A stretch of DNA of 64,000 nucleotides, taken from NCBI RefSeq assembly GCF_054482595.1, contig NZ_CM137008.1; one strand, 5' to 3'. Both the position numbers and the translations under genes were made by a program. The notes beneath the pieces are model-generated. The model did no database searches and had not been told where the DNA came from. It saw nothing but the letters and a program-made list of their open reading frames with translations. This document shows, piece after piece, positions 43,771 to 64,000 of this stretch. Numbering within the stretch: the stretch's first letter is position 1; each line of letters opens with the position of its first letter.

Positions 43771-44841
43771 TTATTTAATCCGGGCCATCGCGTTTCTCAG
43801 TGCCAAATCTGCCTCTTCCGTTATATCCAGGCTTTTCTGCAATACCGCCTCTGACCGGGTCAGTGCCTGACGTGCTGCCAGCGGTTTCCGGATATGCTCC
43901 ATCGCCAGCATCGTGTCTTCATAGCCCTGCTGACGCCAGGCGTCGGTATGTGCCGATGTAAAACTGAGCAGACCGCCGCTGTTGCCACCATCACCTGCAT
44001 ATTTCAGCCTTTTCCGGGGACGGATCTCAAGGATTGTGGTGTCCGGAAAAGCCTGGCGATCCCATAAAGAACCGTCACTCAGATGCGTCACAATCACCAT
44101 ATTGCATCCGGCATCGACCAGAGGCGTCACAGGGGTATTTCCCTGCATATTTCGCCATCCTCCCATACCACCATCACCGAACATTGTCCCCTGAACCTCA
44201 CGGGGACGGAACAGCAGGGGCAGCGCGGCTGACGCAAGCAGAGCCTCTTTCTGCTGTCCGCGGGGCAGGCTCTGGATATGCTGAAAAACGGCGTTTTTCG
44301 TGGTTCCGACACCCAGTTCAGCACGAATGCAGTCAATAATATCCTGCATGCCCCCTTCTGTGGGGTACAGCGACACATACAGCGGTAGCCCGTCTGCCAG
44401 AGCATCAGTATCAAGATAATGATCCATCAGCGCTGTCAGGGGCTCATCTGACAACAACGGCTGAGCCATCAGATTGTCAAACCCGTTGATTGTCGATATA
44501 TGGCGAAGAAGCGTCGTAAGCAGTGCTCCTGCACGTCCGGGGATCTGGCAGAGGTTCATTGCCTGGAACAATTTTTTCAGCAATGAAAAGTAAACCAATC
44601 TGTTTACCGACAGCACCTGATTATTCCCCAGATGATCCCAGAGCGCCTCCAGGCGTACGGCAGCTTCTGACAGATCGGGAGAGGCCGCGATAATGGCACC
44701 ATTGAATGCGCCAATGCTGGCCCCTGAAACCATGCTGATCTGTGTACCACACTCTGCCAGTGCCTTAACCACTCCCGCCTGATAAGCGCCCACCGCCCCG
44801 CCACCGGACAGCACCAGCCCCGTTTTCATTTCTGTACTCAT
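43771..44841 (-). CDS. Patatin-like phospholipase
   Basis: 356 aa; Gly-rich oxyanion loop LVLSGGGAVGAYQAG, nucleophile elbow VSGASIGAF (GxSxG), catalytic Asp in FGDGGM (DGG); no signal peptide; start ATG overlaps the upstream stop (ATGA). Confidence 0.8.
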   Translation of the reverse strand: MSTEMKTGLVLSGGGAVGAYQAGVVKALAECGTQISMVSGASIGAFNGAIIAASPDLSEAAVRLEALWDHLGNNQVLSVNRLVYFSLLKKLFQAMNLCQIPGRAGALLTTLLRHISTINGFDNLMAQPLLSDEPLTALMDHYLDTDALADGLPLYVSLYPTEGGMQDIIDCIRAELGVGTTKNAVFQHIQSLPRGQQKEALLASAALPLLFRPREVQGTMFGDGGMGGWRNMQGNTPVTPLVDAGCNMVIVTHLSDGSLWDRQAFPDTTILEIRPRKRLKYAGDGGNSGGLLSFTSAHTDAWRQQGYEDTMLAMEHIRKPLAARQALTRSEAVLQKSLDITEEADLALRNAMARIK

Positions 44842-45743
44842 GCAGCCCCCTTCTGAAATATTTCATCGACCATACTTTCAGAGAGGCGTTCTGCAGAGCA
44901 GAGGCGAGGCATGCGAACCGGTAAGTGTTCTGCAGCCTGCGTGGTTGACCAGATCACCGGATGCTGCTCTTCACTGCACCAGTCTCCCAGCCAGTTAATC
45001 GCGTCATGCCACTCGTTATCTGCCTGCTCCCGGCCCTGACCACCAAGCCAGTCCAGAGTGTTCAGACGCACGGTTGCACTACCGCCACTCTCCTGTGCCA
45101 TCTGCGTTAATGCTTTATGTCTGAGAATATCCAGTAGCTGGTTAACCTGGCCTGTTTCGCCCTGACGTATCACATCACCAAACGCGCCCCAGCGAAGCTC
45201 TTCAAGTGCCACATAACAACGTCCGGCAGGGGAAAATGACGCATATCGCCCGGCGCTCCACCATGAGAATATCTGCTCAAGATGTAACTGCGCCCGCTGA
45301 ACCTGGTCAACACGGTGGAGTTTTTCTTCAAGATGATTCAGTTTATGGTGAACCTGATCGGCCAGGGTGAGTAACTGCTCCCGCGTATCTGCGGAATAAT
45401 GCGCCAGCCTGGCTGTATCACTGACCAGTGAACTGACCCTGTCGTTTACCCGGGTAATCGCGTAGTTTGTGGTGGCAAGTGACGTTGTCATCTCCGTCAG
45501 CCAGCGCAGGGACGCCTCAACGCCCTGTGCAAGCGACGCATTGATGGCATTCTGCCGTGCAGCGCCTTCGCCGGTCAGCCCCTCTTTTAAACGCCGGAAG
45601 AACGTGCGCTCTCCGGCCGTGCGGATATGCTCCTGTGCAACATCGATTCCGTTTGCGAAATCAACCACAAATTTTTCAGGAAGACAGGTGAGTACCTGAC
45701 ATACCCGGTTATCAGCAATTTGTTGAATAAATGGTGAAGTCAC
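44838..45743 (-). CDS. Helical/coiled-coil protein of unknown function, translationally coupled partner of the dynamin-like GTPase
   Basis: 301 aa, no nucleotide-binding motif; ATGA overlaps at both ends (45740-45743 and 44838-44841). Confidence 0.6.
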   Translation of the reverse strand: MTSPFIQQIADNRVCQVLTCLPEKFVVDFANGIDVAQEHIRTAGERTFFRRLKEGLTGEGAARQNAINASLAQGVEASLRWLTEMTTSLATTNYAITRVNDRVSSLVSDTARLAHYSADTREQLLTLADQVHHKLNHLEEKLHRVDQVQRAQLHLEQIFSWWSAGRYASFSPAGRCYVALEELRWGAFGDVIRQGETGQVNQLLDILRHKALTQMAQESGGSATVRLNTLDWLGGQGREQADNEWHDAINWLGDWCSEEQHPVIWSTTQAAEHLPVRMPRLCSAERLSESMVDEIFQKGAA

Positions 45744-48136
45744 AGCATTGTCTCCAGCTCTTCCCTCAGCGCCTTACTGTCAGTAATGAGCTCAGGAACC
45801 CTTTCATTTAATGCCTGAAGTCGCCCGGTAAGTCGTTCCTGCGCCTGCTGATCGCGTTTATGATCCTCAGAGCTCTGAATCAGCGTGTTACGCAGTTGTT
45901 CAACTTTCTCCCTGAATGCGCAGAAAAAGGCATCGATTTCCTGGCGGACGGGCTGGTTAATATCCTGCTCAATGGATGCCTGCAGCTCCCCGAAATATGC
46001 CCGGGTCAGTGACATAACTTCCTCTCTGACCTTGTTGATATTGATCACGCTGCGACTCACATCCTCGTCATAGTTTTCCCAGCCCAGGTCACTGGTGCCA
46101 AACCATCGACAAACGGTTCCCCATACGCCACTCTGCCGACGGCGACGGGTGACGGTCTCCGTTCTTTCCTCCATAAGCGCACTCAGATTTATTTTTACCG
46201 CGAGCCGGGTCTGTAACTGGCTGACTGCCGGAAAACTGATTTTTACGGTAAAGCCCTCATCCTCCAGGCGGGCATTGATGCGACCGGCAATGTTTTCTGT
46301 GGCGTACAGGGCCGTGCCACGAAAACCTGTTTCAATCCCGCTGACGATTTTCTCCAGCTCAGGCCGGAACTGTGCTTCAGCCTCACGGTGCAGGCTGGTC
46401 ACGGTCGATTCGATTTGCGTCATCAGTTCAAGGGCTTCCCTGCGATCACTGAATTTTATTTCGGGGCTGTCCGGGGCAAAATCTCGTTTCCTGTAATCCT
46501 CCCGGCCCTGGTTGTTGATACCGGACCATTGAGAAATTTTCCCCCATAATCCGGACTGAGACCTTCGTTGTTCTGCGTCTTCTTCCTCCAGCATTTGCTG
46601 TTCTTTGCGTTTACCGCTTCTGAAATAGTCATTCAGCTCCTCTTCCAGTGAGGTGCAGACCCCCGTCAGTAATTCCCGGGTTTTAGTATCGATCTCCTCC
46701 ATGGCCATTCTGACATCAGTGGTCATCTGCTCCTGACAGTCCGCGATTTCCCGGATATCCGCAAGCAGGCTGGTGATATGCGACTGCAGTGACTGAATGC
46801 TTTGCTGTAGCCCCTGATGGCGTAACAACAGGTATTCACTGATATTTTCTGCATTCTGCATCAGTTTTGCGGCGGCAGAGTCAACCGCCAGTGCCGCAGC
46901 TCTGGAATGTGAGCTCTGTATGACTTCCGTTATCAGTTGATCGATAAGTGAGCCTTCCCACAGGTCTGTCGCCCCTTCAGTTGCCAGTTCACTGTCTTTA
47001 CAGACGTATTCTTTTTTCATGCAACCGAAGGCACCTCTGATAAAATCATCGACCCAGGCTTCATCAACAGGAAGGGTTCCGTTTTTCCGTAACTCATGAA
47101 GCGCACGGTTAGCCAGGTATGCCTGGCGTGAGGATCCGGGATAAACGCGGGAGGCGGGCAGCACATCGCTGTTCAGCATTGCCGGAACTTTCTGGCGTAC
47201 GGCATCTGCCCCATCGCCATTGCGGTCTTTCTCATCAAATTTATTGACCAGTACAAACAGGCGGCCGGCTGATACGTCAGCAATGGCATTAAGCTCTTTA
47301 CGGACGTCTTCATCCGCTTTTGAGTTCATCTGGGTGTAATCCATCACAGCCAGAACCGCAGAGGCTTTCTGCAGTTGATCCCGCATCATCACTTCCATCT
47401 GCGGTTGTCCGGCCTCATTAGGGCCGGGGGTATCCAGCAGTGTGAGTGTTCCCTGGCATGCATCCATCCCCACCAGATGGCTGAATTCCACGTCGATCAC
47501 CGGCAGTTTCTGCACTTCTGCGTATTCATCAAAAGGAAATTCAGTCCCCATTGCCGCAGCAAGACGAACCAGATCGTTTAACGATGCCAGTCCGGTAAAG
47601 ATTTCCTCCTCCCCGTGGTATTCATTTTTGAGCCAGCCATCATCCGTCAGAATATCCAGCAGTTCGCGGGTATCCCCGGTTTGCTGCAGGGTCTGTGCGA
47701 CCTGCTGTCCTGCCGGGGTGGCGAGTTTTTCCTGCAGTGTGATTAATAAATTGCGGACAGGCTGAATATGTTCCAGATGGAGAACCGGCTCAGTTTTTCC
47801 GGGAACGTGGCGGATGAGCGTCGGTACAGAGGTCATGGGGCGGTTACGGTTAGGCAGAATTTCCTGCCCCACAATGGCATTGATGGTGGTTGATTTGCCT
47901 GCTTTCATCGTGCCGACAACAGCCAGCACCATCTCCCTGCGGGCGGTTTTGATTTGTTCGCCCTCCAGCTCCTCAATTCTTTTCAGTGCTTTCTGTTTAT
48001 CAAAAAGCAGTCTGTTTTCGTTCTTACTGTCAGATAACACATCTGGCTCCTCAACCATTTGCCGGAGCAGATTAATGTTCAGTTGCAAAAGTCGGTCGGC
48101 TTCATCACAAAGCAGGGCGATGTTCTTTTCGTGCAT
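45740..48136 (-). CDS. Dynamin-like large GTPase (bacterial dynamin-like protein family)
   Basis: 798 aa; G1 P-loop VVGTMKAGKSTTINAI, G3 LLDTPGPNE, G4 VLVNKFDEK, then about 500 aa of helical/coiled-coil sequence; AGGAAGG Shine-Dalgarno 7 nt upstream of the ATG. Confidence 0.8.
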   Translation of the reverse strand: MHEKNIALLCDEADRLLQLNINLLRQMVEEPDVLSDSKNENRLLFDKQKALKRIEELEGEQIKTARREMVLAVVGTMKAGKSTTINAIVGQEILPNRNRPMTSVPTLIRHVPGKTEPVLHLEHIQPVRNLLITLQEKLATPAGQQVAQTLQQTGDTRELLDILTDDGWLKNEYHGEEEIFTGLASLNDLVRLAAAMGTEFPFDEYAEVQKLPVIDVEFSHLVGMDACQGTLTLLDTPGPNEAGQPQMEVMMRDQLQKASAVLAVMDYTQMNSKADEDVRKELNAIADVSAGRLFVLVNKFDEKDRNGDGADAVRQKVPAMLNSDVLPASRVYPGSSRQAYLANRALHELRKNGTLPVDEAWVDDFIRGAFGCMKKEYVCKDSELATEGATDLWEGSLIDQLITEVIQSSHSRAAALAVDSAAAKLMQNAENISEYLLLRHQGLQQSIQSLQSHITSLLADIREIADCQEQMTTDVRMAMEEIDTKTRELLTGVCTSLEEELNDYFRSGKRKEQQMLEEEDAEQRRSQSGLWGKISQWSGINNQGREDYRKRDFAPDSPEIKFSDRREALELMTQIESTVTSLHREAEAQFRPELEKIVSGIETGFRGTALYATENIAGRINARLEDEGFTVKISFPAVSQLQTRLAVKINLSALMEERTETVTRRRRQSGVWGTVCRWFGTSDLGWENYDEDVSRSVININKVREEVMSLTRAYFGELQASIEQDINQPVRQEIDAFFCAFREKVEQLRNTLIQSSEDHKRDQQAQERLTGRLQALNERVPELITDSKALREELETML

Positions 48137-48193
48137 TATTTAACCTTCCTAAGACGCATTTTCATGACAACCACGGAGGAGGTCATTCACTAC

Positions 48194-48236
48194 AAACGAT
48201 CGTTTATAACGATCGATATGATAGTAACGATCGATG
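48194..48236. promoter_or_regulatory. Cluster of three GATC-containing AACGATCG boxes upstream of the dynamin operon (candidate Dam/OxyR phase-variation switch)
   Basis: aaacgatcgttt-ataacgatcgat-atgatagtaacgatcgatg; GATC at 48198, 48211 and 48229, 60-100 bp upstream of the dynamin start codon, in the slot corresponding to the yeeP-flu intergenic region. Confidence 0.4.
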
Positions 48237-48353
48237 TATTCTATTAACTTGAGAAACACAACGCAAGGGGACAACCCGGGTATGGCTGCGTTTGCATAGT
48301 GTTTTCATGGAGTTAAAAATCTGTAACAACAGCCTGGTACATCACCACCGGGT

Positions 48354-49226
48354 TCAGAAGAAAATCCAGTTCCATACCGCGCGGGCAACAGAGACCACCG
48401 AGTCACGGACGGCGCGCAGAACCGTGCGTGCAACAGAGGCAATGCAGACGCTCTCCGCCGTGTCAAATATCCGGTCCACCGCACCGGTAAACTGTTCACG
48501 GGCCTGAGACCGGACAGACTCCGTGCGCAGCTCGTCCTGCAGGCGGGTCATCAGGGGACTGGCGGCATGGTCGGGAAGTGCTGTCATGAGCGCACTGACC
48601 AGCGTATCCAGTTCCCAGCCGGTGCGGGCCGATACGGCAACAACCCGATGTACGGGCCGGAACAGACGGAATACCGCCTCCGTTTTTTCGCGAATGTTCT
48701 GTGCCTGTGCGGGAGAAGGCTGAATACCGGCCATATCCCATTCATGGCAGGGCTCCGTTTTATCGGCCTGCATCACCACAAACAGTACCCGCTGATGTCC
48801 CCGGTGCAGGATGTGTCGCCAGAAATACTCATCCACAGACAGGGCACGGTCATCGGCTTTAATCAGCCACAGTACCAGGTCCAGTTCGGGCAGAATGTCA
48901 CGGTACAGGGCTTCATACTCTGCATCCCTGTCCCGGCTCTCGCCCACCCCGGGCAGGTCAGTGATAACCATGCTGTGACCATGGCCATTCAGACGGAAGC
49001 GCTGCACTTCCCGGGTGCCGGCGTGAACATCACTGACCGGGGTGACCTCCCCCTGAAACAGCGCATTACAGAGTGAGGATTTACCGGCCCCGCTTTTCCC
49101 CATAATGCCAATCACGGGTTCGTGACTGGTGAGTTTGCGCAGATGTTCCAGGATGTGACGGGAAAGTGAGTAAGGCAGGGAGGAGAGCGGTTTTTCGATT
49201 GCCTCAATGGCATCAGACGGATTCAT
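48354..49226 (-). CDS. yeeP: YeeP/YfjP/YkfA-family small GTPase (island backbone)
   Basis: P-loop GIMGKSGAGKSSLCNAL, G3 ITDLPGVGE, G4 VMQADKTE; start set at MNPSDAIEAIEK (GGGAA Shine-Dalgarno), about 290 aa. Confidence 0.7.
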   Translation of the reverse strand: MNPSDAIEAIEKPLSSLPYSLSRHILEHLRKLTSHEPVIGIMGKSGAGKSSLCNALFQGEVTPVSDVHAGTREVQRFRLNGHGHSMVITDLPGVGESRDRDAEYEALYRDILPELDLVLWLIKADDRALSVDEYFWRHILHRGHQRVLFVVMQADKTEPCHEWDMAGIQPSPAQAQNIREKTEAVFRLFRPVHRVVAVSARTGWELDTLVSALMTALPDHAASPLMTRLQDELRTESVRSQAREQFTGAVDRIFDTAESVCIASVARTVLRAVRDSVVSVARAVWNWIFF

Positions 49227-49309
49227 ACATGTATTCCCGGTGAAAAAAGACAAAACCCCGCGCACCGGAAAGGTGGCGGGGGATTCACGGAAATAATATC
49301 TGTCTGAAA

Positions 49310-50473
49310 TTATCTGGAATCGATTTGGCTGTTCTGCCTGGTTGCCACCAAATCATGGTACGCCTGCTCAATCATTTCATTCAGCAGTTTTTTTGGGAGG
49401 ACACCACGACTTCGGGCAATACTTTCAAGCTGTTTGTGGATTTTTCCGGACAGTTTCAGAGGGACGGAACCATCAGCACGTTCATCACGCCTTTTTTGTT
49501 GCTCCCGGGCACTTTTCAGCTCATCAAGAAGAATCGCTTTATGCTGAATCCTGGGGGCCTGGAAGGAGACCTGCGTAAACTTCGCTCTGTTCCGTCTGGG
49601 ATTACTTTCCAGTAAAAACTGTACCTGTTGCTCATTCCAGCCCTCCCAGTTATCAAACGTGGCGCAGGCAAACCAGTATTTCTGCTCCGGGGTAAGGGGA
49701 TTCAGCGGGGTTCCCACACACCGGACCTGCATGGCGTTCCATAACCAGTCACACTGTTCACTGTCCCTGCTGTCCACCCACGAAAAGGGGGAGGGGTAAT
49801 CATTGTTTATGCTGGCCCATTCAGAGAATACTGAGTTGATAATCGTCCTCGTAGCCTCTGGTCCGGATTTCAGCAGGTAACTGGAGCAGAACCATATAAT
49901 TTCACGGTAGATTTTATCCGGATGCACGGTGCGCATCGGCTTTTCTCTGGGACCGGCAATCTTCGGTTGCGATGGAAACCCCGTGGCAAACCGCAGATGT
50001 TCCGGGGGCATTCCTGAACGTTTTTCAGGAATGGGTGTGAGTCCTGCGTTTCTGGTCTTTTCCGCTTGTCCGGTATTGCCTCCGGCCGGAGTGTTGTCGG
50101 GAGTATCTTCCGGAGGCGAGGTGTTTTCATTAGTTGGGGGAACAACAGCAGAACTGTCCATCTCCGGAATGGGTTGAGGGGCATAATCACTGTGGTAGCC
50201 AGGGGAAAGCGTTAAGTCCCGAAGGGTGACATCAGGTTCCGGGCAGTGAGTGCCACCGGGAGTGAACGGGAGTTGTTGCTTTTGGGAGAAAAATGTATTG
50301 TGAATGCGGGTATACAGCTGGAACAGAAAAAAATAAGATGCCCGTGGTTCTTTTTTTAACCACTGTGTATATTCCTCTATGGCACCGAGCTGTTGTTTGT
50401 GCCGTTTTACAGCATCGATATACGGACAGCTGGTGCAGATATCATCCAGTTCCTTTCCCACAATACACCTCAC
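49310..50473 (-). CDS. Hypothetical protein (Pro/Thr-rich linker; basic C-terminal helical region)
   Basis: 387-aa ORF with no recognisable family; no canonical ATG near the 5' end (the listed start is GTG), so the start is uncertain. Confidence 0.35.
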   Translation of the reverse strand: MRCIVGKELDDICTSCPYIDAVKRHKQQLGAIEEYTQWLKKEPRASYFFLFQLYTRIHNTFFSQKQQLPFTPGGTHCPEPDVTLRDLTLSPGYHSDYAPQPIPEMDSSAVVPPTNENTSPPEDTPDNTPAGGNTGQAEKTRNAGLTPIPEKRSGMPPEHLRFATGFPSQPKIAGPREKPMRTVHPDKIYREIIWFCSSYLLKSGPEATRTIINSVFSEWASINNDYPSPFSWVDSRDSEQCDWLWNAMQVRCVGTPLNPLTPEQKYWFACATFDNWEGWNEQQVQFLLESNPRRNRAKFTQVSFQAPRIQHKAILLDELKSAREQQKRRDERADGSVPLKLSGKIHKQLESIARSRGVLPKKLLNEMIEQAYHDLVATRQNSQIDSR

Positions 50474-51993
50474 CTGCTTTTCTCACATTTGCAGATTTTA
50501 AAAAAGCAAACAAAAACCTCCGTACATGATGTACAGAACAATCTACCAGGTAGTGGCGTCAGAAAACCTCCGGGCCGCCTGCACTTTCCGGAATGCGCCG
50601 GTTATGAAAAACCGGAAATTCAGTCTCTGTTGTAAGATGTACCCTCTGATACTACGTTTTCTCTGTGTATTTAACTCACTGTATTTATTGTCTTTTTAAG
50701 CTTGACTAATATTCTCCGGTCATAGTGTGCCGGATACACATCCCGTAAACTTCTCATTTTTATATAAAAATACCTGCACTCTCTTCAGCGCATCTGTCTC
50801 CTTTAAGTAAAAAATGTTTTTACGTATTGCTGTAAATTCATTTTAAATCAGTATATTACCTTGATATTGCTGTCTCCTGGTTTGATGCGTAATCGTTCTG
50901 CCTTTCTGGATGATTCTGGTGCTTCCGGGTGCATTCTCCTCTGCACATGCAACAGTTCGTCATCGCCACGCTCCCAAAAAGCATATAAAAACGAATCGAA
51001 TTTGATATTTTTTTCAATCGTTTTTCATAGGAATTTCGTAGGGTATTCTCCGCTATAACCTCCATATTTGCTGTCTTTTTCTTCATAAATCGTATGCAAT
51101 GTAGCCTGTCTGTCAAGACCTCTTCTCTGCTGTTGAGGAGACGATCTCATTTTTGGTCTTTTCCGGGAGAGAGGCTGTCAGATGAGCGAGCCGGATATAC
51201 TGTCAGAGGTACACCCCGTAGCAGACCTGTGCTCCCATTTCCGCGATCCGGAACCAACAACACCCTACGGTTAATACCATTTGAAGCGTCAGGTACTGCA
51301 GGAAGTTCCCCCCTGCGCGGACATCGGTTCCTGCCGACATCTCACAATACGGCCAGACTGTCATGCAGTAACACCCGCATGCGGTCTGCGGTTTTAAGCG
51401 CACTCTCCCGTTTTCAGTGCATCGATAATGCGTCATAGTAAGTCTGGGGGAAGTTACGGAATGCCTGTTAAGTGGTGCCGTGGGTGGAGACAGCTTACTT
51501 TTCTACAGCAACTGCAGTCATTCAGGATGATCAGGAGATATTCTGTCAATGTCACGATCCTGCCATTTTCGTACCCGCTAAGATACTTCCGTTACTGATG
51601 CTGTCCGCTTTTCACCATTTCATCCTCACTGACAGGCGTTGCGTTTTGGGTCATCACCACAGCTTTACGTTTCTCTTTTAACCGGTAACGCTCTCCTTTG
51701 ATATTCAGCGTGGTTGAGTGATGCAGCAGTCAATCCAGGAGCGCTGTTGTCCGGCAACCACCATATCAACTTCTTCCCGGGTGTGGCGGAGAGGTGGTAT
51801 CCTGGCTGAGTTTCGAAGCGAACCGTTCTTTTTGACGGGCGCATTTTACGTCCGGGCTGAATGTAGTAACGCGGCATGGAACGTCGGCCCGTATACCATT
51901 GCCTTAATCTCCGCAAAGATAACCTCGTCATTCCGGACATTCTCTGCCAGGCATATGTCGATGTAATCCATAAACGATTTCAGCTTACCCCTT

Positions 51994-53951
<1,958 letters not shown>

Positions 53952-54813
53952 TTTGTGGCCAGTCTTTCTGGCTGGCGGTTCAGGGGATGTTTTCTGGTTA
54001 TCGTGTACCACAAAGCAGGGATATTGCCCCGATAGTCACATTTCAGATTGATCGCGGTCTGAAGATGTGGCACTGAGGTAACGTGCTGGTGTCACTGGTA
54101 TTGCTGAAGTTATGGTTTTTCGGGGTCAGGTGAGCCTGTTGTGTGTATGCTTTTTGTTCAGGTCAGAGGGGGACTGTGTGGACAGCGGCTTTTGTCTCCG
54201 GGCATTCACGCCTGAACGATGAATGCGATTTTCAGCAATATTTGTCTTTGTGACACTCTCTGGTTGAGAAGCTAATGCGCGCCCCTGTTTCCACAGAGAA
54301 TGAGGCTTGCCATCAGCCGAAACATCAGTATTCCACGCCATACAGACGGCGCCTGACCATGTGCTGATGCAGGTAAAATGTTTCACTACAACTGTTCGGG
54401 TTGCTATGCAACGAAACAGCGATTCTCACGATCTTTAACTGCAACGTTTTTCCGCCTGAAAGCTGACTGCCTCCTGCTGAGGTGGGAGGCTATGATTCAG
54501 TGCGTTTATAGTCTCCGGGGTATGCATGTACCGGAGCATACCATTTCTGGTGGATAACAAGCCGGCACATTCAGACTGCAGTGAAGATGGAGGCACCTGG
54601 TTGTGAAGAACGTTTCTGCCCGTGGCTGCTTCGCATCATCAATGGTATTCATACCCGCTCAGAAATGACCGGGTGCTGAAGCCCTCCGTTATCGCGCAGT
54701 ATAATGACGTATATGATCTGTGGACGAGTGAGCGGCGTGCCTGATGTACGCCGCTATTACTGTATTTTACCACAGGGCTGGTTTTCTGCTGCCAGCCCTG
54801 TGGTTCTCAGACA

Positions 54814-55416
54814 TCAACTGTGAGCGGCATCAACCGATGTACGGTATGCCATAAGCACGTACTGATCCATCAGATTTGTCAGTGGTTCACTCTGACCCTG
54901 ACGTGCAATGATCCATTGCTCCAGATCTTTTTCTGATTTGTGTTTCAGGTTTTTCGTCCAGTCGTCAAGGCTGTTTCCGGTCATTAAGTCAAGCCAGCAG
55001 AGCCAGACCAGTTTGAGACGTAACTCCGTGCCGCCAAACTGACGGAAGAGGCTGATCAGTTTGTTTGCCAGAGAATGTTGCTTCAGGCGCTCACATTCAG
55101 ACAGCAGGATCCCTTCCAGCATCGGATGATGAACCAGCAGGTGTTCGCTGGTGCATAAATTCACCACCAGATCATCATCCAGGGACGGGGAGCTCCGTTT
55201 GTCCGGACCATAAATCAGCCGGTGCAGACTCTGGGGAACGATGGCAATCTCCGGTTTTTCGCCATTGAATGACACCCACCCGGGCGTCAGATTATGGAAA
55301 TAGTAGATATTCGGATGACACACGCCCCATGATACGGCGTGCCGGGTGAAGCCGGTCAGCCATTTCTGGTAGTTTTCATGGAGCAGCTCGTAACGGGTCT
55401 GATACTGTTGTTTCAT
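54814..55416 (-). CDS. Hypothetical protein
   Basis: ORF 54814..55431; likely start MKQQYQTRYELL with GAGGAA Shine-Dalgarno; no family recognised. Confidence 0.35.
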   Translation of the reverse strand: MKQQYQTRYELLHENYQKWLTGFTRHAVSWGVCHPNIYYFHNLTPGWVSFNGEKPEIAIVPQSLHRLIYGPDKRSSPSLDDDLVVNLCTSEHLLVHHPMLEGILLSECERLKQHSLANKLISLFRQFGGTELRLKLVWLCWLDLMTGNSLDDWTKNLKHKSEKDLEQWIIARQGQSEPLTNLMDQYVLMAYRTSVDAAHS

Positions 55417-55509
55417 TTTCATATTCCTCACGGGGGATAACAGGCAGCAGAGCGCCGCCGGCAGGCCGGAGATTGCGTCTGCTGTGGGCGAAGGGTTAGT
55501 GGTTAAAAA

Positions 55510-55716
55510 TTACAGACGGGACTGTGCAATACGCGCCTGCAGCCAGGCTTCCACTTCACTTTTCAGCCAGCGGGAGCTGCGCCCCATTTTGATGGGCGCA
55601 GGAAAGCCCCCATCTTTGATGAGTTTGTCAAACCACTTATCGGTAAGGCCGGTCAGTTGAGTGATAAACGCCATGTCGACCATCTGGTCATCCATCAGCG
55701 AAACTGGGGTAGCCAT
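55510..55716 (-). CDS. alpA: AlpA-family phage/island transcriptional regulator (HTH)
   Basis: 68 aa from MATPVSLMDDQMVDMAFITQLTGLTDKWFDKLIKDGGFPAPIKMGRSSRWLKSEVEAWL, the AlpA signature; the longer ORF to 55920 is an upstream extension through a poly-C tract. Confidence 0.6.
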   Translation of the reverse strand: MATPVSLMDDQMVDMAFITQLTGLTDKWFDKLIKDGGFPAPIKMGRSSRWLKSEVEAWLQARIAQSRL

Positions 55717-55880
55717 GAGAATGTTCCTCCGGATGTTGTTAAACCAGCCGGTGTGGTCATGAAAACAGCGCGCCACCTTCACCGGCATAACAACCGGGGA
55801 GAAACGTAAAAAATAATCGGGAATGTGGCTGTCCGGAGATAAACGGGGGGATTGCGATGGCAGAGCCGTAGCGGAATCCC

Positions 55881-55894
55881 GGGGGGGGGGGGGG
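55881..55894. repeat. Homopolymeric G tract, 14 nt (C14 on the minus strand)
   Basis: cccgggggggggggggggttgcg at 55878-55900, about 165 bp upstream of the alpA-like start. Confidence 0.9.
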
Positions 55895-56845
55895 TTGCGA
55901 AAAGATGCTTCCGCACGCACGCGCGATAAAGAGGGGATAGTTTTCGTGAGGACAGGGAGAGAAGCAGGCGTTCTGATAATTGCAGAGTTGTTTTCGGAGG
56001 TGGTTACAGTGAGTCAGCCCGTTCCTGGCGAGCAGGAGACTGATATCACCGATGGGATAAGGTTGTCTGATTGGTATTATAAATATAAGAAGTCATCAGA
56101 GAGTAACGTAAAGGATTTGCCAGAATAACCTAAGAGAGTAAATCTCTCCGGTAACAGAGCGCTGTGAAGCATTCTGTATTAGAGTGCAGATACATGAACG
56201 CTGATGCGTAAAATCAGCAGTGACACGCCAGCTCCCCCTATGCCCATTCCTGTATAAGACATGAACTGAGTGTATTAATGCTTCTGCCCTGAGACTGAGC
56301 CGGTGAGTGAGGGGCTGAGAAATCCCTCTTGACACAGCTCTAACCAGAAATACTTCCCCGGTTGTTGCGGTGCGTCCGGATCCCCGATAACGGAACACTA
56401 AGGCTGTATTGCGGGACACCGGGTAAGTAGCAGCCCGTAAGGCGTTCTGTCAACGCCAGAAAAAATGATTTCCCACACGCGTTATAGACTCACTCCTGTG
56501 GACCTGGAAGCCCGTAACTCTGCGGTTGCCCACTGACTGACGGAACTGACCGCAAATTTTACGAGTGCGTGCTGGGCTTCAGTCTGGTCACCTGAGCGTT
56601 CGGTAACGGAGGCGCGGGCGGTAATAGGCTGATTTTCAGGTATTACCGGCTTACAGCGTGTGGTTGATATTGAGGGGCTGTGAGTTTCGCGTATTTGTCA
56701 GAAACCCAGACGAGTTTTCCTGTATGGGACGAAATAAGGCAGCGGCAATACCTGGAAAAATTTAATATGGTATGAAGGAGAACCTGTCGGTTACGCTTAA
56801 TATACCCGGTACACTGTCAGCTCAGGGGATACATGAACCGTTATC

Positions 56846-57049
56846 TCACCAGCTACACAGTATATACACACTGACGCTGACAGTAGTCAGCAGGACCACA
56901 ATAATCAGTGCCAGCAGTATGGTAACGATACGGTCTGTATTCCGGTAATAGCCGAAGGGGTCGACAGAACCACAATACGGGCAACACACTGTATTATGAG
57001 TAATCGCGTTTCCACAGTCCCTGCACTTCTTTTTGCGTATCACCATCAC
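56846..57049 (-). CDS. Small zinc-ribbon membrane protein (hypothetical)
   Basis: 67 aa; CRDCGN...CCPYCGS zinc-ribbon pair then one TM helix (IVTILLALIIVVLLTTVSVSVYIL); GGAGG Shine-Dalgarno 6-7 nt upstream of the ATG. Confidence 0.3.
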   Translation of the reverse strand: MMVIRKKKCRDCGNAITHNTVCCPYCGSVDPFGYYRNTDRIVTILLALIIVVLLTTVSVSVYILCSW

Positions 57050-57245
57050 TCCCTCCTCACAGCCTTACCCGTAACCGGTTTTTTACATTAAAAAAACAAC
57101 GCTGAAAATTCAACCGTCAGTCCGGAGACGACCGTTCGGGTTATCACAGAGTGCCTGAGACAGTGTCCTGCCGGAGGTCACTTCAGGGACTCTGCGCATT
57201 TTTTACGACGTGGCTATTCCGTATGAACCATACGGAGATTTAACC

Positions 57246-57815
57246 ATGACCTACAAATACAACCCCTTCTGGCAGCAACGTATTCGTGAGACGGTGCGGC
57301 ACGCACTGAATGTTCATCCCCGCCTGACGGCATTGCGGGTTGACCTGCGTTTCCCGGATGTACCGGCAGCAACGGACGCAGCTGTGATATCCCGCTTCAT
57401 CAATGCCCTGAAAGCCCGAATCGACGCTTACCAGAAACGTAAGCATCGGGAAGGTAAACGCGTGCATCCCACAACCCTGCATTACGTCTGGGCCCGGGAG
57501 TTTGGGGAGTGCAAAGGTAAAAAACACTATCACCTGATGCTGCTGGTTAACCGGGATACCTGGTGTCGTGCCGGTGATTACCGTGCTCCGGGATCACTGG
57601 CCGGGATGATTAAACAGGCGTGGTGCAGTGCCCTGGGAGTGGATGTCGGGTGCCATGCCACGCTGGTGCATTTCCCGGCCTGGCCGGCGGTGTGGCTGGA
57701 ACGCGATGATGACACTGGCTTTCAGCAGGTGCTGGAACGTGCTGACTATCTGGCGAAGGAACATACCAAAGCTCACTGCACCGGTGAGCGCAATTTTGGC
57801 TGTAGCCGGAGTTGA
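57246..57815 (+). CDS. YagK/YfjJ-family protein (inovirus Gp2-like domain)
   Basis: 190 aa from MTYKYNPFWQQRIRETVRHALNVHPRLTALRVDLRFPD; GGAG Shine-Dalgarno 8 nt upstream; family assigned from memory. Confidence 0.5.
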   Translation: MTYKYNPFWQQRIRETVRHALNVHPRLTALRVDLRFPDVPAATDAAVISRFINALKARIDAYQKRKHREGKRVHPTTLHYVWAREFGECKGKKHYHLMLLVNRDTWCRAGDYRAPGSLAGMIKQAWCSALGVDVGCHATLVHFPAWPAVWLERDDDTGFQQVLERADYLAKEHTKAHCTGERNFGCSRS

Positions 57816-58074
57816 GCACGACTGGCGCGCCAATACCCGGCAAACCAAAAGTATGGGTTGTTGTCTGGCGGCAACGATGTATCCACTCGCCCACTGACTG
57901 TTTTTTACGTCAGTGTTCCATTGTGTGACAACCACAGTGCTGTAACAGCAACCAGCCTGCTTTACCCAAACTCCAGTCCAGATTTTAACTGAACCGCCAT
58001 TCACACCCTGACCACGCTGCCCGTACCGGGACGGCTGTTGCCTGCGTGTCGTCTGGCGGCTGAGGAATATGACT

Positions 58075-58476
58075 ATGTACGCAAAATCCTTTATCGCTCT
58101 TGATGGCAACGGACGTCTGACGGGCGCCCGTACTGCACAGGCCGCACCTTATGCTAACTACACCTGCCACTTGTGTGGCAGTGCACTCAGATACCATCCG
58201 CAATACGACACTGAACTTCCCTGGTTTGAACACACTGACGACAGGCTGACAGAGCACGGTCAACAGTGCCCTTATGTCAGGCCGGAGCGCAGAGAAATAC
58301 AGTTGATTAAACGTCTGCAGCAATTCGTACCGGATGCCTTACCCGTGGTGCGTAAAGCCAGCTGGCACTGCAGACAATGTCACCACGATTATTATGGGGA
58401 GCGGTACTGCACACACTGCCAGACCGGAGGATTCAGTATTCCCCGGACAACTCAGGAGGAAATATGCGAATTCTGA
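58075..58476 (+). CDS. Zinc-ribbon protein, paralog 1 (hypothetical)
   Basis: CHLCGS...PWFEH...CRQCHH...CTHCQTG; two CxxC pairs and a shared PWFEH motif. Confidence 0.4.
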   Translation: MYAKSFIALDGNGRLTGARTAQAAPYANYTCHLCGSALRYHPQYDTELPWFEHTDDRLTEHGQQCPYVRPERREIQLIKRLQQFVPDALPVVRKASWHCRQCHHDYYGERYCTHCQTGGFSIPRTTQEEICEF

Positions 58477-58871
58477 ACTGTTATATGGCGAATGACAGCA
58501 AAGGCCATTTTGTTACGGCGAAAGAAGCAGCGAAGCACAACCGCCAGGACGTTTTGTGCTGTGTGTCCTGTGGATGCCCGTTAACACTTCAGCGGGGCAA
58601 TGACGGACAACCACCGTGGTTTGAACATGACCAGATGACTGTCGCTGAGAAAATCCTGCTGCGATGCACCTGGCTTGACCCGGCAGAGAAAGAGGCCCGT
58701 CGTTTGCATCTGCAGGGTATGACGGTTCCGGATTATACGGTGAAGGTGAGAAAGTGGTTTTGTGTGATGTGTGACGAAAATTATGAGGGGGAAAAGTGCT
58801 GCCCGAGTTGTGGTACCGGGGTATACAGCAGGGAGGGGGGGCAGGAGGGCAACTGGAAGGATAGGAACTGA
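58464..58871 (+). CDS. Zinc-ribbon protein, paralog 2 (hypothetical)
   Basis: From MRILNCYMAND; CVSCGC...PPWFEH...CVMCDE...CPSCGTG; same motif architecture as the upstream gene; 13-nt overlap. Confidence 0.4.
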   Translation: MRILNCYMANDSKGHFVTAKEAAKHNRQDVLCCVSCGCPLTLQRGNDGQPPWFEHDQMTVAEKILLRCTWLDPAEKEARRLHLQGMTVPDYTVKVRKWFCVMCDENYEGEKCCPSCGTGVYSREGGQEGNWKDRN

Positions 58872-59154
58872 GCGGTTCAGTCGCGGAAATCAGTTGCAGA
58901 GCTGTAATGATATCTCCGGGAGTGCTGCGTTGGTAGGGGCATCCCGGGATAGAGAAATTTTAGCACTTTGCCCTGAATGATTGTAGACGTCCCGAGTACT
59001 CGTACCGGTCTGAGTTATTACAGTTAGATATTCACTTTTTCTCCCGCATACTTCACATCTGTCAACGACGGATGAAAAGTGGTTCTTCCGCAACCTGGGT
59101 GGAAGAAAATGGATGAAACTTTCTGGCGAACAAGGATCTAAGCTGTTTTAAGTT

Positions 59155-60774
59155 ATGGGCAACGCAATGCACTCTCTTAAGACACTTCTACAGTTACCTT
59201 GCGGATGGCGATGCAGTCGACAAATTATTAGCTCTGACGGTATAACCCTCCATCTCCACGGAAAACGCAAAACAGCACAATGTCCTGAATGCTTTAAGCG
59301 TAGCGACTCTGTTCATAGTTGTCGTCGGCGCCGGATACAGCATCTACCCTGCTCAGGGCAGACGCTATGGCTTGTATTTTCCGTCCGCCACTGGTACTGC
59401 CGTAACCCGGCTTGTTCACGTAAAATTTTTGCCGAGTCGCTTGCTCCCTTCGCCAGTTCACACCAGCAGTCTTCACAGGCGTTACAAAATTAACAACGTC
59501 AACTGGGATTAATAGCTGGAGGTGAGGCTGGAAAACGGGCTGCAACGGCAGTGGGTCTCCGTTGCAGTGCTGATACTCTTCTTCGCAGGCTTATCAATAC
59601 CCCGGAGACGAAACAGTCAGGCGCGCCTCATGTCGGTATTGATGAGTGGGCGTGGCATCGGGGCCACTGCTGCGGTATGTTAATAGTCAATCCTGATACT
59701 CACCGTCCCCTCGTCCTGCTTCCCGGCCGTGATCAGCGTACGCTGGCGACCTGGTTCAGAAAATATCCGGAAATACAGGTTGTCTCGCGTGATCGCAGTG
59801 GAGTCTATGCGACAGCAGCACGTGAAGGTGCACCTCAGGCCAGACAGGTGGCCGATCGATGGCACCTGCTAAAAAATATTGGTGATGAGCCTGAACGAAT
59901 GATGTACAGACATATGCCTCTGATACGTCTTGTTGTCAGAGAGTTATCACTGAAGAAATCACCTGAGCCAGAAATATCTGTGCCTGTAGCATCGCTCCGT
60001 CGTCTGGAACGCCTTAAACAGCACATCCGCAAAAAACGGCATCAGCGTTGGACAGAGGTTATGGCCCTGCATAACAAGGGATGTAGTTTCAGGGAAATAT
60101 CCCGTATTACAGGCCTGTCGCGAGTGACAGTCAGTCGCTGGGTGGGTTCAGGAACATTCCCTGAAATGTCAACCAGGCCTCCAAAGCGAGGGCTTCTGGA
60201 CCCATGGAGGGAGTGGTTAAAAGAGCAACGAGAATGTGGTAATTATAACTCCGGCCGGATATGGCGGGAAATGGTGGCCAGGGGGGTTACAGGCAGTGAA
60301 ACCATCGTCAGGGATGCTGTTGCCAAATGGCATAAAGGCTGGATCCCACCGGTTACTACTGCCGCAAGACTTCCTTCAGTGTCACGGGTAAGCCGCTGGT
60401 TGATGCCCTGGAGAATAATCAGGGGTGAAGAAAATTATGCTTTCCGATTTATTAGTCTGATGTGTGAAAAAGAACCGGAGTTGAAAATAGCGCAGCAACT
60501 GGTACTCGAGTTCTACCGTATTCTGAAAACCTAAAATAAATCACAGCTAAGCAGCTGGTTCACTCGGGTCCACGAAAGCGGCTCAGCAGAACTTCGGTGC
60601 GTAGCTGCGGGGATGGAAGCTGATGCTGCGGCTATATGTGAGGCAATCAGCAGTCGCTGGAGTACTGGTGTTGTCGAAGGTCATGTAAATCGCCTGAAGG
60701 TGCTGATACGCCAGATGTATGGTCGAGCCGGACTTGAACTACTTAGGCGGAGGGTAATGAGTCCACTGGCATGA
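59155..60774 (+). pseudogene. ISL3-family transposase, degenerate (split over three reading frames)
   Basis: Fragment 1 (59155-59493) zinc-finger N-terminus (CPECFKR...RRIQHLPCSGQ...RHWYCRNPACSRKIFAE); fragment 2 (59551-60534) DDE region (VGIDEWAWHRGHCCGML...VVSRDRSGVYA...ADRWHLLKN); fragment 3 (about 60540-60774) C-terminus (VVEGHVNRLKVLIRQMYGRAGLELLRRRVM). Confidence 0.5.
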
Positions 60775-60844
60775 AAATCTTCACCTAGGTTGAGGAAGAG
60801 CCACTTTTGCACTGTTCGTGACAGTATGGCCTTTATGTACTCAC

Positions 60845-61146
60845 TTTGTTACCGGTAGCTGGATCATCACTACCGTGCCGCAAATGGTGGTGAACAGCAT
60901 CAATTGTGGAATGAATGTTGCCGAAGCGACCAATGCGCCTCGTTTCCACCATCAGTGGTTGCCGGACGAGCTGCGTGTTGAAAAGGGTTTAGTCCGGATA
61001 CGCTCAAGCTGCTGGAAGCAAAAGGTCAGAAAGTGGCGCTGAATGAGGCGATGGGCAGCACGCAAAGCATTATGGTTGGGTCGGATGGTGAGTTGTACGG
61101 CGCATCCGACTCGCGCTTGGTGGATGATTTAACGGCGGGGTATTAA
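60845..61146 (+). pseudogene. ggt: Gamma-glutamyltranspeptidase 3' remnant with internal frameshift
   Basis: Encodes ...VTGSWIITTVPQMVVNSINCGMNVAEATNAPRFHHQWLPDELRVEKG, then after a 1-bp frame change FSPDTLKLLEAKGQKVALNEAMGSTQSIMVGSDGELYGASDSRLVDDLTAGY*; abuts the ISL3 remnant. Confidence 0.65.
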
Positions 61147-61153
61147 TTGACAT

Positions 61154-61176
61154 CCCCCGGCGCAATGTGCCGGGGG
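61154..61176. terminator. Bidirectional terminator-like hairpin between convergent genes
   Basis: cccccggc-gcaatgt-gccggggg, 8-bp GC stem. Confidence 0.4.
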
Positions 61177-61185
61177 ATAATGGTT

Positions 61186-62220
61186 TTATGCGGTCAATAA
61201 TCGTCCGGGATTATCGATACAGAGTTTTTTGAGGATCGTTTTATCGACGCCGCGCTCCGCCAGATAGGCCAGAAAAACATCTGGAACAAATCCCCAGCCA
61301 TTACCGCCATTTTTAGCCCACATTTGTTTAAGGAAGACATCGTGGCTGAGAACAAGCTGATCGGCGTATCCCAACTCAATGAGATGAGCGACGGCATCGG
61401 CAGTCTCCTGCACCCCTGGCGCTATTCCCTCTTTCGGGAAGGTAATGTCTAGGCCAATCATGTCGAATTCCAGCCAGACACCTTTATCAAGCATTTTCCG
61501 CTGATACGCCACGTCTTTTCCTGACGGATCCGAGTGTGCGAGAGAGACTTTATTTGGCGAGACGCCCATTTCACCTAACACAATGTCGAGTACTTCATCA
61601 CCGCGACGAAGCCAGCCCGGCATGTGAATATTCATCGCCACATGAGGATTGTTAATCTGTGCCAGCGAGGCAGCCCGCAAGCTGTTATGCTCGGCTTCGG
61701 TAAATGTCGGTGAGACACCTATTTCACCGATCATTCCGGCACGAATATCCGTATCGCCAATCCCTTGATTCAATTCTTTATCGATCGTTGTCGCTAGTTC
61801 ATCAACCGTTTTATGAATTCTCTGGCTTTCAAATTTTTCCAGGTAGGGACCGGAGGAAGCAACAATATTCAGACCTGTTTTTAATGCGACTTCTCGTAAT
61901 GCCTGCGCATCTCGTCCGATAGACTCAGACCCTGTGGCATCAACAATGGTGCGACCACCGAGCGAGATAAAGTTATTAATTTCGAAGATCACATCTTCAA
62001 TAGGTTTGCGGTCCATATTATCAGCGCAGCAATAAGGATCGTGTTTTAATGCCCACTGGATTTCTGCCGTGACTTTTTTATCAACAAGCCGTTGTGAAAA
62101 AGGATAGCAAGGAGCATCCACAACAGAGGAAAGATCGTTGAACAGATGTTCATGAGGAAGTGTTAGCCCCATATCTTCACGGGCGACGGGGCCCGTCACA
62201 GTTTGTAGATAATCTTTCAT
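61186..62220 (-). CDS. Phosphotriesterase-family (PTE/Php-like amidohydrolase) protein
   Basis: 344 aa; N-terminal metal-binding HxH (GLTLPHEHLF) and TIM-barrel hydrolase layout. Confidence 0.6.
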   Translation of the reverse strand: MKDYLQTVTGPVAREDMGLTLPHEHLFNDLSSVVDAPCYPFSQRLVDKKVTAEIQWALKHDPYCCADNMDRKPIEDVIFEINNFISLGGRTIVDATGSESIGRDAQALREVALKTGLNIVASSGPYLEKFESQRIHKTVDELATTIDKELNQGIGDTDIRAGMIGEIGVSPTFTEAEHNSLRAASLAQINNPHVAMNIHMPGWLRRGDEVLDIVLGEMGVSPNKVSLAHSDPSGKDVAYQRKMLDKGVWLEFDMIGLDITFPKEGIAPGVQETADAVAHLIELGYADQLVLSHDVFLKQMWAKNGGNGWGFVPDVFLAYLAERGVDKTILKKLCIDNPGRLLTA

Positions 62221-62222
62221 GA

Positions 62223-63188
62223 TTATACCTCCATTTTCTTCATTGTTTTCGAGGCTCTGTATTCCGGAATAGTGGTAACAATTGCACCGACCAGTGCAAA
62301 CAGTGTTCCGATGATCGTGACCAGATAAACGGTATTGCCCAGCGATGGAATTAATACGTCAATCAATACTGATCCCAGTAACTGGCCCGCCGTTGAAGCA
62401 ACCCCCAGCATCAGTAACCCAAGACCTCTGACCAAAATGGCCATTAAACCGATAGACATTAGTCCAAGCGGGCCGCCAAGATACATCCACCAGACATCTG
62501 GTAATTGAACAGTGACGTGCCCTAATGCGACACGAATAGCTAGCGCTGTGCCTAAAACACAAAATCCAACGATGAAATTCCAGGTGATTGAAACCAGCAT
62601 GGATCCCGTAGCTTCAGCTACTTTTGCATTTCCAGCGGGCTGCCATCCTGCAAGCAAACCAGCTAAGAACGGAAGAATGGCAAGTAAAATGAAAGAGGTA
62701 GAATGCCACTGCGGTGACACAACAAAAATCGTAGCAATAACCGCAAATAATGCACCGATGATGCGATAAGGGGTAAAGTATTTTTTCTCGTCGACACCGA
62801 TACCAAAGCGATCGCAAAGTAAACCAGACAGCAATAGCGCGGAGATCAGTGCGGTCTGAAACGTTGCGACCCCGAGTGCGCTGGCTGATGCGCCTTCAGA
62901 AAATACCACCATCGCTCCACAGAGACCGGCAAACCAGTTCCAGAGAGGAACTTTTCGGTTTTTAATCAGAGAAGGAATTGCCGCAAATTGTTGCCGGGTT
63001 TCTTTTCGCGCCATAATAATAAAAAACATCACGACTAAACCACTGGCAAAGGAGATAACTGCGCATGCATTACCGTCCTGTAACCAGTGACCTAATTGAC
63101 CATTCACCGCTGATTGCATAGGGGAGAGCATACCCGCAAGAATCGTGGCAAGCATCCATAAGGGAGTTGAGTACTTATTCTTTTTCAT
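62223..63188 (-). CDS. Polytopic inner-membrane protein (putative transporter)
   Basis: 321 aa, about 10 hydrophobic segments, internally duplicated appearance; 2-bp gap to the upstream gene. Confidence 0.5.
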   Translation of the reverse strand: MKKNKYSTPLWMLATILAGMLSPMQSAVNGQLGHWLQDGNACAVISFASGLVVMFFIIMARKETRQQFAAIPSLIKNRKVPLWNWFAGLCGAMVVFSEGASASALGVATFQTALISALLLSGLLCDRFGIGVDEKKYFTPYRIIGALFAVIATIFVVSPQWHSTSFILLAILPFLAGLLAGWQPAGNAKVAEATGSMLVSITWNFIVGFCVLGTALAIRVALGHVTVQLPDVWWMYLGGPLGLMSIGLMAILVRGLGLLMLGVASTAGQLLGSVLIDVLIPSLGNTVYLVTIIGTLFALVGAIVTTIPEYRASKTMKKMEV

Positions 63189-63244
63189 ACATCAATCCTT
63201 CTATTATAGTAAATGGAGTAACTGGTGTTACCCCATTATTATTA

Positions 63245-63976
63245 TTATCTTGCAATATGAGTCAGTATATTTACCCACAACGCGGTATAGAACGGCCAGG
63301 ACATAAACTGCTGTGTACCCCAGTGCGGTGAACAGTCACTCATAAAGCAGGCTATTTTCCCGTTGTGATAGTTACCAAAGACCAGTAATGGATCGTTGTT
63401 TATTGTTAATACCACCTCAGCATTTTCTTTAGCGATCGCCCGGTTATAACCTAGGAAAAAAGGATATTCAGAGAACCCTTTAATAACCGGATGGTCAGGT
63501 TGTGATGGCTGTGCAATAACCCCCTCTGGTTTTTCGACACGATCGTCACCATCTAACATCGTAACCGGGAGCACATCAGCCAGAACTGTATTTTTATAAT
63601 TGGCTTTTGCTTCAATTCCCATGAATGAGAGATAGCCGCCAATCATCAATAACCCACCACCGTTATTCACATATTCTTTAATCAGTTCGAGAGCGTTTGG
63701 TTTTATGCGAAGCTGATAAAAAGTATCATTTTGTAGCAGGAAAGTATTACTACCAATATCACTAATAACGATGGCATCATATTGTTCTAACTGTGCCACA
63801 TCTTCAGGGAAGGCAATTTGTACCGTATGTGCCGGCATATAGGTGACATCTACCTGACTATTTTTCAGACATTGGAGTAACCAGGTCGCACCTTCTTCAT
63901 ATTTACTTGAGGTAAAACTGTCATATCCTTTTGAATGAATCATATGAATATGCCAGGATTCTCCAATAAAGAGCAC
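63245..63976 (-). CDS. Hypothetical protein, possible class-I glutamine-amidotransferase-like fold
   Basis: 243-aa ORF with YDAIVISD...GGGLLMIGG; frame is open to the window end, so the true start may be GTG 63976, ATG 63943 or beyond the window. Confidence 0.35.
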   Translation of the reverse strand: MLFIGESWHIHMIHSKGYDSFTSSKYEEGATWLLQCLKNSQVDVTYMPAHTVQIAFPEDVAQLEQYDAIVISDIGSNTFLLQNDTFYQLRIKPNALELIKEYVNNGGGLLMIGGYLSFMGIEAKANYKNTVLADVLPVTMLDGDDRVEKPEGVIAQPSQPDHPVIKGFSEYPFFLGYNRAIAKENAEVVLTINNDPLLVFGNYHNGKIACFMSDCSPHWGTQQFMSWPFYTALWVNILTHIAR

Positions 63977-64000
63977 CTTTAGTGATTTTTTGGTGTTATT

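Follow-up and report, generated by a model that had tools for sequence, protein, structure and literature searches.

A hypervariable poly-G tract upstream of an alpA-like gene in an Escherichia coli island and ISEc20 insertions in G runs

The alpA-like gene and its surroundings

The window, meaning the whole 64-kb stretch of DNA that was analysed, is part of an E. coli chromosome. It contains the rfb (O154) and his operons and the yee genes, followed by a large degraded island of the CP4-44 type. The island occupies about 33000-64000 and includes yeeW, cbtA/cbeA, an antirestriction gene, a patatin-like gene, and dynamin-family and GTPase genes. It is rich in IS (IS21/ISEc12, IS100, ISL3 and IS66 remnants) and contains pseudogenes, such as a frameshifted cbtA and GTPase fragments. 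No integrase is annotated in the island stretches examined. With no annotated integrase and so many IS and pseudogenes, the alpA-like excisionase/regulator gene of this island may be vestigial. The features around this gene are as follows.

54814..55431, minus strand: gene for a 205-aa hypothetical protein, downstream of and co-oriented with the alpA-like gene (ORF list; RefSeq WP_000813432.1)
55510..55716, minus strand: AlpA/excisionase-family HTH gene, 68 aa, the nearest gene downstream of the tract (Pfam, PHROG; RefSeq CDS WP_000235213.1)
55717..56005, no strand: conserved non-coding block upstream of the alpA-like gene, containing the tract (alignment of 19 distinct copies)
55726..55730, minus strand: Shine-Dalgarno sequence GGAGG, 9 nt before the ATG at 55716 (direct sequence reading)
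55823..56128, plus strand: 101-aa ORF that reads the tract as GGGG, judged spurious (ORF list)
55845..55857, no strand: direct repeat GGGGGG(A/G)TTGCGA, copy 1 (copy 2 at 55888-55900)
55881..55894, no strand: G14 homopolymer (C14 on the alpA-like coding strand), a hypervariable simple-sequence repeat (sequence and cross-genome length polymorphism)
55976..55984, minus strand: best minus-strand promoter candidate, a putative extended -10 element TGcAATTAT (relaxed consensus scan)
56846-57049 (minus strand), 57210-57815, 58069-58476 and 58377-58871 (plus strand): YagK/YfjJ-like and small zinc-ribbon genes

The local order is the 205-aa gene and the alpA-like gene (both minus strand), an unannotated region of 1.1 kb that holds the tract, a 67-aa zinc-ribbon ORF (minus strand) and a gene of the YagK/YfjJ "inovirus Gp2" family (plus strand). 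The 68-aa protein passes the gathering threshold of Pfam PF05930, Phage_AlpA (25.2 bits, cut-off 21), and matches PHROG excisionase/regulator families (E = 8e-9). In matching genomes, RefSeq annotates a 207-nt CDS for a helix-turn-helix regulator that starts at the ATG at 55716. A longer minus-strand ORF, 55510-55920, reads ...NPPPPRD... across the tract, as the original prediction had it. The Shine-Dalgarno sequence in front of the ATG favours the short start over this PPPP-containing extension. The 205-aa protein has no match in Pfam, NCBIfam or PHROG, and its gene probably forms one operon with the alpA-like gene.

The product resembles AlpA of prophage CP4-57 (PF05930) in being a small HTH/excisionase-like protein that is encoded in a P4-type E. 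coli island and passes the Pfam threshold. Its sequence is presumably quite different from that of K-12 AlpA. Unlike the CP4-57 gene, the window gene is not beside an annotated integrase but precedes the 205-aa gene.

Several further observations concern the right side of this locus. The unannotated 1.1-kb region is highly divergent among copies (56100-56850 of the window). Paralogous islands carry remnants of Hha/YmoA-family genes there (2178-2321 in locus L006 and 2179-2358 in L008), and none is annotated in the window copy. The YagK/YfjJ gene ("inovirus Gp2", REP_ORF2-G2P-like) is flanked by three small zinc-ribbon proteins. The unannotated region near this gene could hold an origin-like site for a Gp2-type initiator.

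Read directly, the sequence has CCC at 55878-55880 followed by 14 G, exactly as predicted, and the tract lies 165 bp from the ATG, in agreement with the predicted value of about 165 bp. Every other G or C run in the window is 7 nt or shorter, with 7 nt reached as the next longest. To our knowledge, a tract of 14 is much longer than usual for E. coli. An iid or first-order Markov model of composition predicts about 2e-4 chance runs of at least 14 nt in the window.

Length variation and origin of the tract

A pure G run is found at the tract site in more than 130 complete genomes, and its length ranges from G9 to G20. A second series of alleles, GnTG, runs parallel to the pure Gn series. Lengths were counted with synthetic queries composed of a 53-nt flank, Gn and a 53-nt flank; full-length matches were assigned by their span, and the lengths were verified by sequence in nine fetched loci. 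The counts by identity band from these searches were discarded as allele counts and replaced by row-by-row spans, because partial 100% alignments to paralogs inflate the band of 99% and above. The pure runs were G9 (3 records), G10 (10), G11 (25), G12 (at least 23, a minimum taken from a 1-kb query), G13 (15), G14 (23), G15 (9-13), G16 (7), G17 (10), G18 (6) and G20 (1, from one fetched locus). The GnTG alleles were G8TG (5 records), G11TG (4) and G14TG (22).

Among the 60 top matches of the 1-kb query, all with identity of 99.6% or more, the matched span was 999, 1000, 1001 or 1002 nt. In the fetched loci, differences in span are the tract itself (G10, G14TG, G20, G16, G8TG and G11TG). G13 in place of G14 is found where the 1-kb flanks match the window at 100% identity. 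Copies with at least 99.97% identity to the window across 20 kb have G12 or G14; the closest genomes are HCM-21C-2 (G12) and WP4-S18-ESBL-08 (G14). The tract therefore changes in length within a handful of SNPs per 20 kb. Change on this scale, as judged from aligned genomes, is the signature of a slippage hot spot. The part of the original prediction that described a length-variable element is thus borne out by the comparison across related genomes that it had proposed, with G9 to G20 at the exact site in otherwise near-identical DNA. Another genome, TUM1880 (NZ_CP135706.1), is 100% identical over 1 kb at the tract and has an extra IS66-family (ISCro1) insertion within 44000-64000, which marks it as another strain than that of the window.

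Tract length is the same within each of five apparent clonal pairs: MSB1_7A/3B, KN13-4/KN12-1, DETEC-P649/P666, GN03551/GN03139 and APEC E16002/E18006. Pairs were taken as clonal when genome sizes and coordinates were nearly identical. Such agreement means that the lengths can be reproduced and do not represent random assembly noise. The identical lengths also argue against extremely high switching rates.

The original prediction had allowed for an artefact, and an error of sequencing or assembly in either the tract or its length was considered. Homopolymers this long are error-prone on all platforms, and the assembly with G20 (L005) also reads G7 in a nearby run where others have G6. Part of the variation by one nucleotide may be homopolymer sequencing error, and the length in any single assembly may be off by +/-1. 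However, the site lies in mid-chromosome between conserved flanks, and the tract recurs in the independently assembled complete genomes counted above as well as in short-read metagenome contigs (G10 in L017 and G9TG in L035). The agreement within clonal pairs and a range of 9-20, far in excess of typical errors of +/-1, also stand against an artefact. We regard this explanation as extremely unlikely and reject it for the presence of the tract.

The origin of the tract can be followed in related copies. The segment from the alpA-like gene to about 56005 forms a block common to paralogous E. coli islands, with about 85-91% identity. At the tract position, the paralogs and metagenome contigs have GGGTGGTTG or GGGGGGTTG, followed by TTGCG. 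GGGTGGTTG is a non-repetitive 9-mer in the paralogous copies of the block. Metagenome contigs and genomes also provide intermediate alleles, namely GGGGGGTTG, G6TTG, G7TTG, G7TG, G9TG and the interrupted GGAGGGGGGTG. The interrupted GGAGGGGGGTG accounts for the majority of the near-orthologous rows in a systematic sample, as assigned by span with one confirmed by sequence. The alleles of the window haplotype are GnTG+TTGCG (n = 8, 11, 14) and Gn+TTGCG (n = 9-20). The haplotypes nearest to the window, with flank divergence of 0.3% or less, have GGAGGGGGGTG, G10 or G14TG. By this comparison within E. coli, the tract is the derived state of the site. Scans of species-representative genomes with the tract-site pattern and with a 28-nt conserved segment upstream of alpA gave zero matches, so they supply no cross-species polarity.

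The simplest path to the tract, as suggested by these alleles, is recurrent T-to-G change adjoining a G run with subsequent slippage. T-to-G changes beside the G run would have made a seed of G6-G9, and one further T-to-G change would convert GnTG to G(n+2). Replication slippage would then lengthen or shorten the tract much faster than point substitutions accrue. Expansion has also occurred on other backgrounds: L017 carries its G10 on flanks that are about 2% diverged, and in L035 a different paralog has G9TG. Expansion is thus an inherent tendency of the motif.

ISEc20 insertions in G runs

The tract site is also the insertion site of a mobile element. ISEc20, an IS110-family element of about 1449 bp, is found exactly in the G-run site in L009 (1602-3070) and L037. 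The junction reads AATCCC-G6TG/CCCC...GTAAC/G5-TGCG, where the slashes mark the ends of the element. Of 60 rows drawn at even intervals from the ranked matches to a junction query, 21 had this junction, ST131 strains included, which implies roughly 850 complete E. coli genomes with the junction. In both of the two ISEc20-bearing loci that were fetched, the flanking genes are annotated intact. The ISEc20 haplotype (L009, L037) is about 1% diverged from the window haplotype, and there is no ISEc20 in the 64 kb of the window.

ISEc20 is found in G runs at other sites as well. Four unrelated insertions lie in the 3' region of a YadA-like gene, a lambdoid prophage, dgcE and a zinc-ribbon gene (loci L038, L039, L040 and L041, with dgcE in L040), with the junctions near 1700 and 3155 of each locus. 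At the five sites taken together, the left flank is G4-G8 ending in TG (GG at one or two sites, L038 included) and the right flank is G4-G6. All seven rows from other sites in the systematic sample extend into a G run. Independent insertions of ISEc20 thus share a flanking motif and a fixed orientation, as expected of a target of RNA-guided IS110/IS1111 insertion. At the prophage site, the empty alleles have a pure G9. The candidate empty site for the L041 insertion has a diverging right flank.

G runs of this size are also seen in prophages in their own right. Lambdoid prophages downstream of tRNA-Arg (L044, L045, L046) have native pure runs of G9-G12, with left or right flanks that differ. 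Because one of the two flanks differs, the G run falls at a mosaic recombination junction.

The dgcE gene has three types of allele among the loci compared (L042, L043, L040). The normal gene reads GTT-GGGGGGTGT-TCTGG. Strain JS316 has GTT-G11-TCTGG, and its gene is flagged as frameshifted. The ISEc20 allele reads G6/IS/G6-TCTGG, a sequence that simple insertion into the normal gene could not produce.

Guide RNAs have been described for the IS110/IS1111 family, and insertion is reported to occur without duplication of target bases (PMC11187229). ISEc20 is similar to these RNA-guided elements in its annotation as IS110 family, its single orientation and its sequence-defined site. It differs from them in that the target is a length-variable homopolymer and not a unique sequence of 11-14 nt. 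The 5' non-coding region of ISEc20, in the orientation of the transposase, contains CCGGGGGGTG and CTGCCCCCAG, 8-10-nt segments whose sequence is complementary to the two junction strands. On this complementarity, CCGGGGGGTG and CTGCCCCCAG are possible bridge/seekRNA guides for a G/C homopolymer target. A literature search found no experiment on ISEc20 and nothing on its target choice, and its apparent programming for G runs may be new.

The presence of ISEc20 at the very same site, flanked by G6(TG) and G5, raises the question of whether the long G run is a footprint of, or an expansion from, insertion and excision of the element. G runs on both sides at all four of the other insertion sites examined are consistent with such an origin, as is the occurrence in dgcE of the IS allele together with the IS-free G11 frameshift allele, where the normal gene has GGGGGGTGT. 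However, the IS-bearing haplotype is diverged from that of the window, as noted above, and its right junction is G5-TGCG where the window has G14-TTGCG. A gradual series without IS (G7TG, G8TG, G9TG, G11TG, G14TG and then Gn) also speaks against this origin, and so does the reported insertion of IS110/IS1111 elements without target duplication (PMC11187229). The native pure G9 at the empty prophage site shows that G runs precede the IS. A footprint origin is therefore improbable, and a simple ISEc20 excision scar is ruled out for the window tract by junction sequence and haplotype.

A wider reading links these sites. Long G runs of E. coli would form a small class of linked hot spots that arise by T-to-G conversion and slippage, ISEc20 would be RNA-programmed to land there, and the length at the alpA site would perhaps also tune the AlpA-family operon. 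As a whole, this reading is doubtful. Its IS-targeting half is fairly likely, whereas regulation by tract length is speculative, as is any part played by the IS in making or extending the runs. Other candidate hot spots of this class are dgcE and the G9-G12 runs of lambdoid prophages at mosaic junctions.

The conserved upstream block and the role of the tract

The tract is embedded in non-coding DNA that is strongly conserved. Among the 19 copies aligned, the frequency of the majority base is 0.88-0.995 per 30-nt bin over 55717-56005 and 0.64-0.84 further right. Part of this conservation is forced by retrieval, as the copies were partly picked by a 41-nt pattern around the tract. The block is about as conserved as the adjoining coding sequence. 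To the right of about 56010-56100, the alignment collapses into substitutions and indels.

The original prediction had also suggested a promoter element for the island regulator. A tool scan and a relaxed consensus scan found no sigma-70 -35/-10 pair that straddles or abuts the tract on either strand. By consensus scan, the repeat is placed neither in a promoter core nor between an activator site and a promoter, as it is in transcriptional switches of the simple-sequence repeat (SSR) type. The best minus-strand candidate, the putative extended -10 element, lies 82 bp upstream of the tract, just inside the distal border of the conserved block. Initiation from this element would give an alpA-like leader of 250 nt with the tract at about +75 to +88. 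The predicted leader has no excess folding stability (z = -0.32), and an Rfam scan of 54000-58000 at E <= 1 gave nothing. The second copy of the direct repeat is formed by the 3' end of the tract plus TTGCGA, and the two copies are spaced 43 bp apart. An inverted repeat, GGGATTGCG and CGGAATCCC, that abuts the tract was rejected as a functional element because it is not conserved in the paralogs.

ORFs cross the tract on both strands, and translational phase variation of one of them, either the plus-strand 101-aa ORF or an N-terminally extended AlpA, was considered. PGAP calls a "hypothetical protein" over the tract site in some genomes only, apparently according to tract length or allele. This patchy call is an annotation artefact of a variable homopolymer. 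The plus-strand ORF was rejected as a gene: in several paralog types it is cut 14-23 codons after the tract site despite conserved DNA, it has frame-breaking indels and no family match, and all three tract phases are common. Against the extended AlpA, the alpA-like gene has a strong Shine-Dalgarno sequence and start codon of its own. Switching at the level of translation is thus very improbable. Another small ORF, with a GTG near 56010 and GGAGG upstream, was rejected because its start codon and frame are not conserved.

Transcriptional phase variation was also considered. The tract would then be a contingency element whose length alters the promoter or leader geometry of either the alpA-like operon or a divergent transcript, and expression of the regulator would thereby be switched or tuned. 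The length differs between near-identical strains, the tract is located within the strongly conserved upstream block 165 bp from the start codon, and the adjoining direct repeat may be a protein-binding motif. As the block is as conserved as coding sequence, a change in spacing of 5-11 bp could well affect regulation. More than 100 genomes have kept pure runs of 10-20 G, possibly because mutability is selected for.

Promoter-located G/C switches are known from the poly-C tracts of fim2/fim3 in Bordetella pertussis and from the poly-G of porA and the poly-C of opc in Neisseria meningitidis. The window tract resembles these classic transcriptional switches in that a G/C homopolymer of about 9-20 nt precedes a gene and slippage makes its length polymorphic between close isolates. 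In fim2/fim3, porA and opc, the tract lies in the -35/-10 spacer or in the interval between activator and -10, and length-dependent expression has been measured. The window tract, in contrast, is straddled by no recognizable promoter element, is 165 bp from the start codon and is missing from paralogous blocks.

Further points weigh against a switch. The same block functions without the repeat in paralogous islands and in most orthologous alleles, and the inverted repeat beside the tract is not conserved in the paralogs. The island is full of IS and pseudogenes and appears degraded. The common view of E. coli is that it does without homopolymer contingency loci, and it is not known to use any. 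The positional hallmark is absent, the repeat is missing from functional paralogs, and an IS is inserted at the same point in hundreds of genomes, all of which argue against a designed switch. We therefore consider phase variation possible but unlikely, and the promoter element of the original prediction finds no support in the promoter scans, in the distribution of the tract among copies of the block or in the state of the island.

We prefer, with a probability of roughly 0.65, to read the tract as a genuine mononucleotide repeat of recent origin, hypermutable, located in non-coding DNA and with no demonstrated regulatory role. Its length variation would most simply be a neutral or near-neutral by-product. 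One consequence is that the repeat serves as a landing site for ISEc20, which in many genomes separates the alpA-like gene from the distal portion of the conserved upstream block.

As a hypermutable repeat, the tract adds one more case to a familiar class, the polymorphic homopolymers, and its length is unusual for E. coli. Polymorphic simple-sequence repeats are indel hot spots in prokaryotic genomes, and typing studies with mononucleotide repeats exist for E. coli. The tract is like these in being an intergenic mononucleotide repeat whose length varies by strain without a known function. It differs from the usual E. coli repeats in that it consists of G/C rather than A/T and that its birth can be traced from a non-repetitive 9-mer via intermediates. 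No account of a poly-G tract in E. coli islands came up in a literature search. Given the view of E. coli as a species without contingency loci, and an origin that can be traced, the tract is a clean natural example of the birth of a hypermutable repeat.

The site also gives rise to spurious ORF calls, as PGAP annotates according to the phase of the tract, and it brings uncertainty to assembly. Were the tract to modulate the AlpA-family regulator, E. coli would have in it a rare case of an SSR switch. Its association with ISEc20 points to a homopolymer as a possible programmed target of an RNA-guided recombinase. Such targeting bears on the choice of IS insertion sites and on genome rearrangement at prophage junctions.
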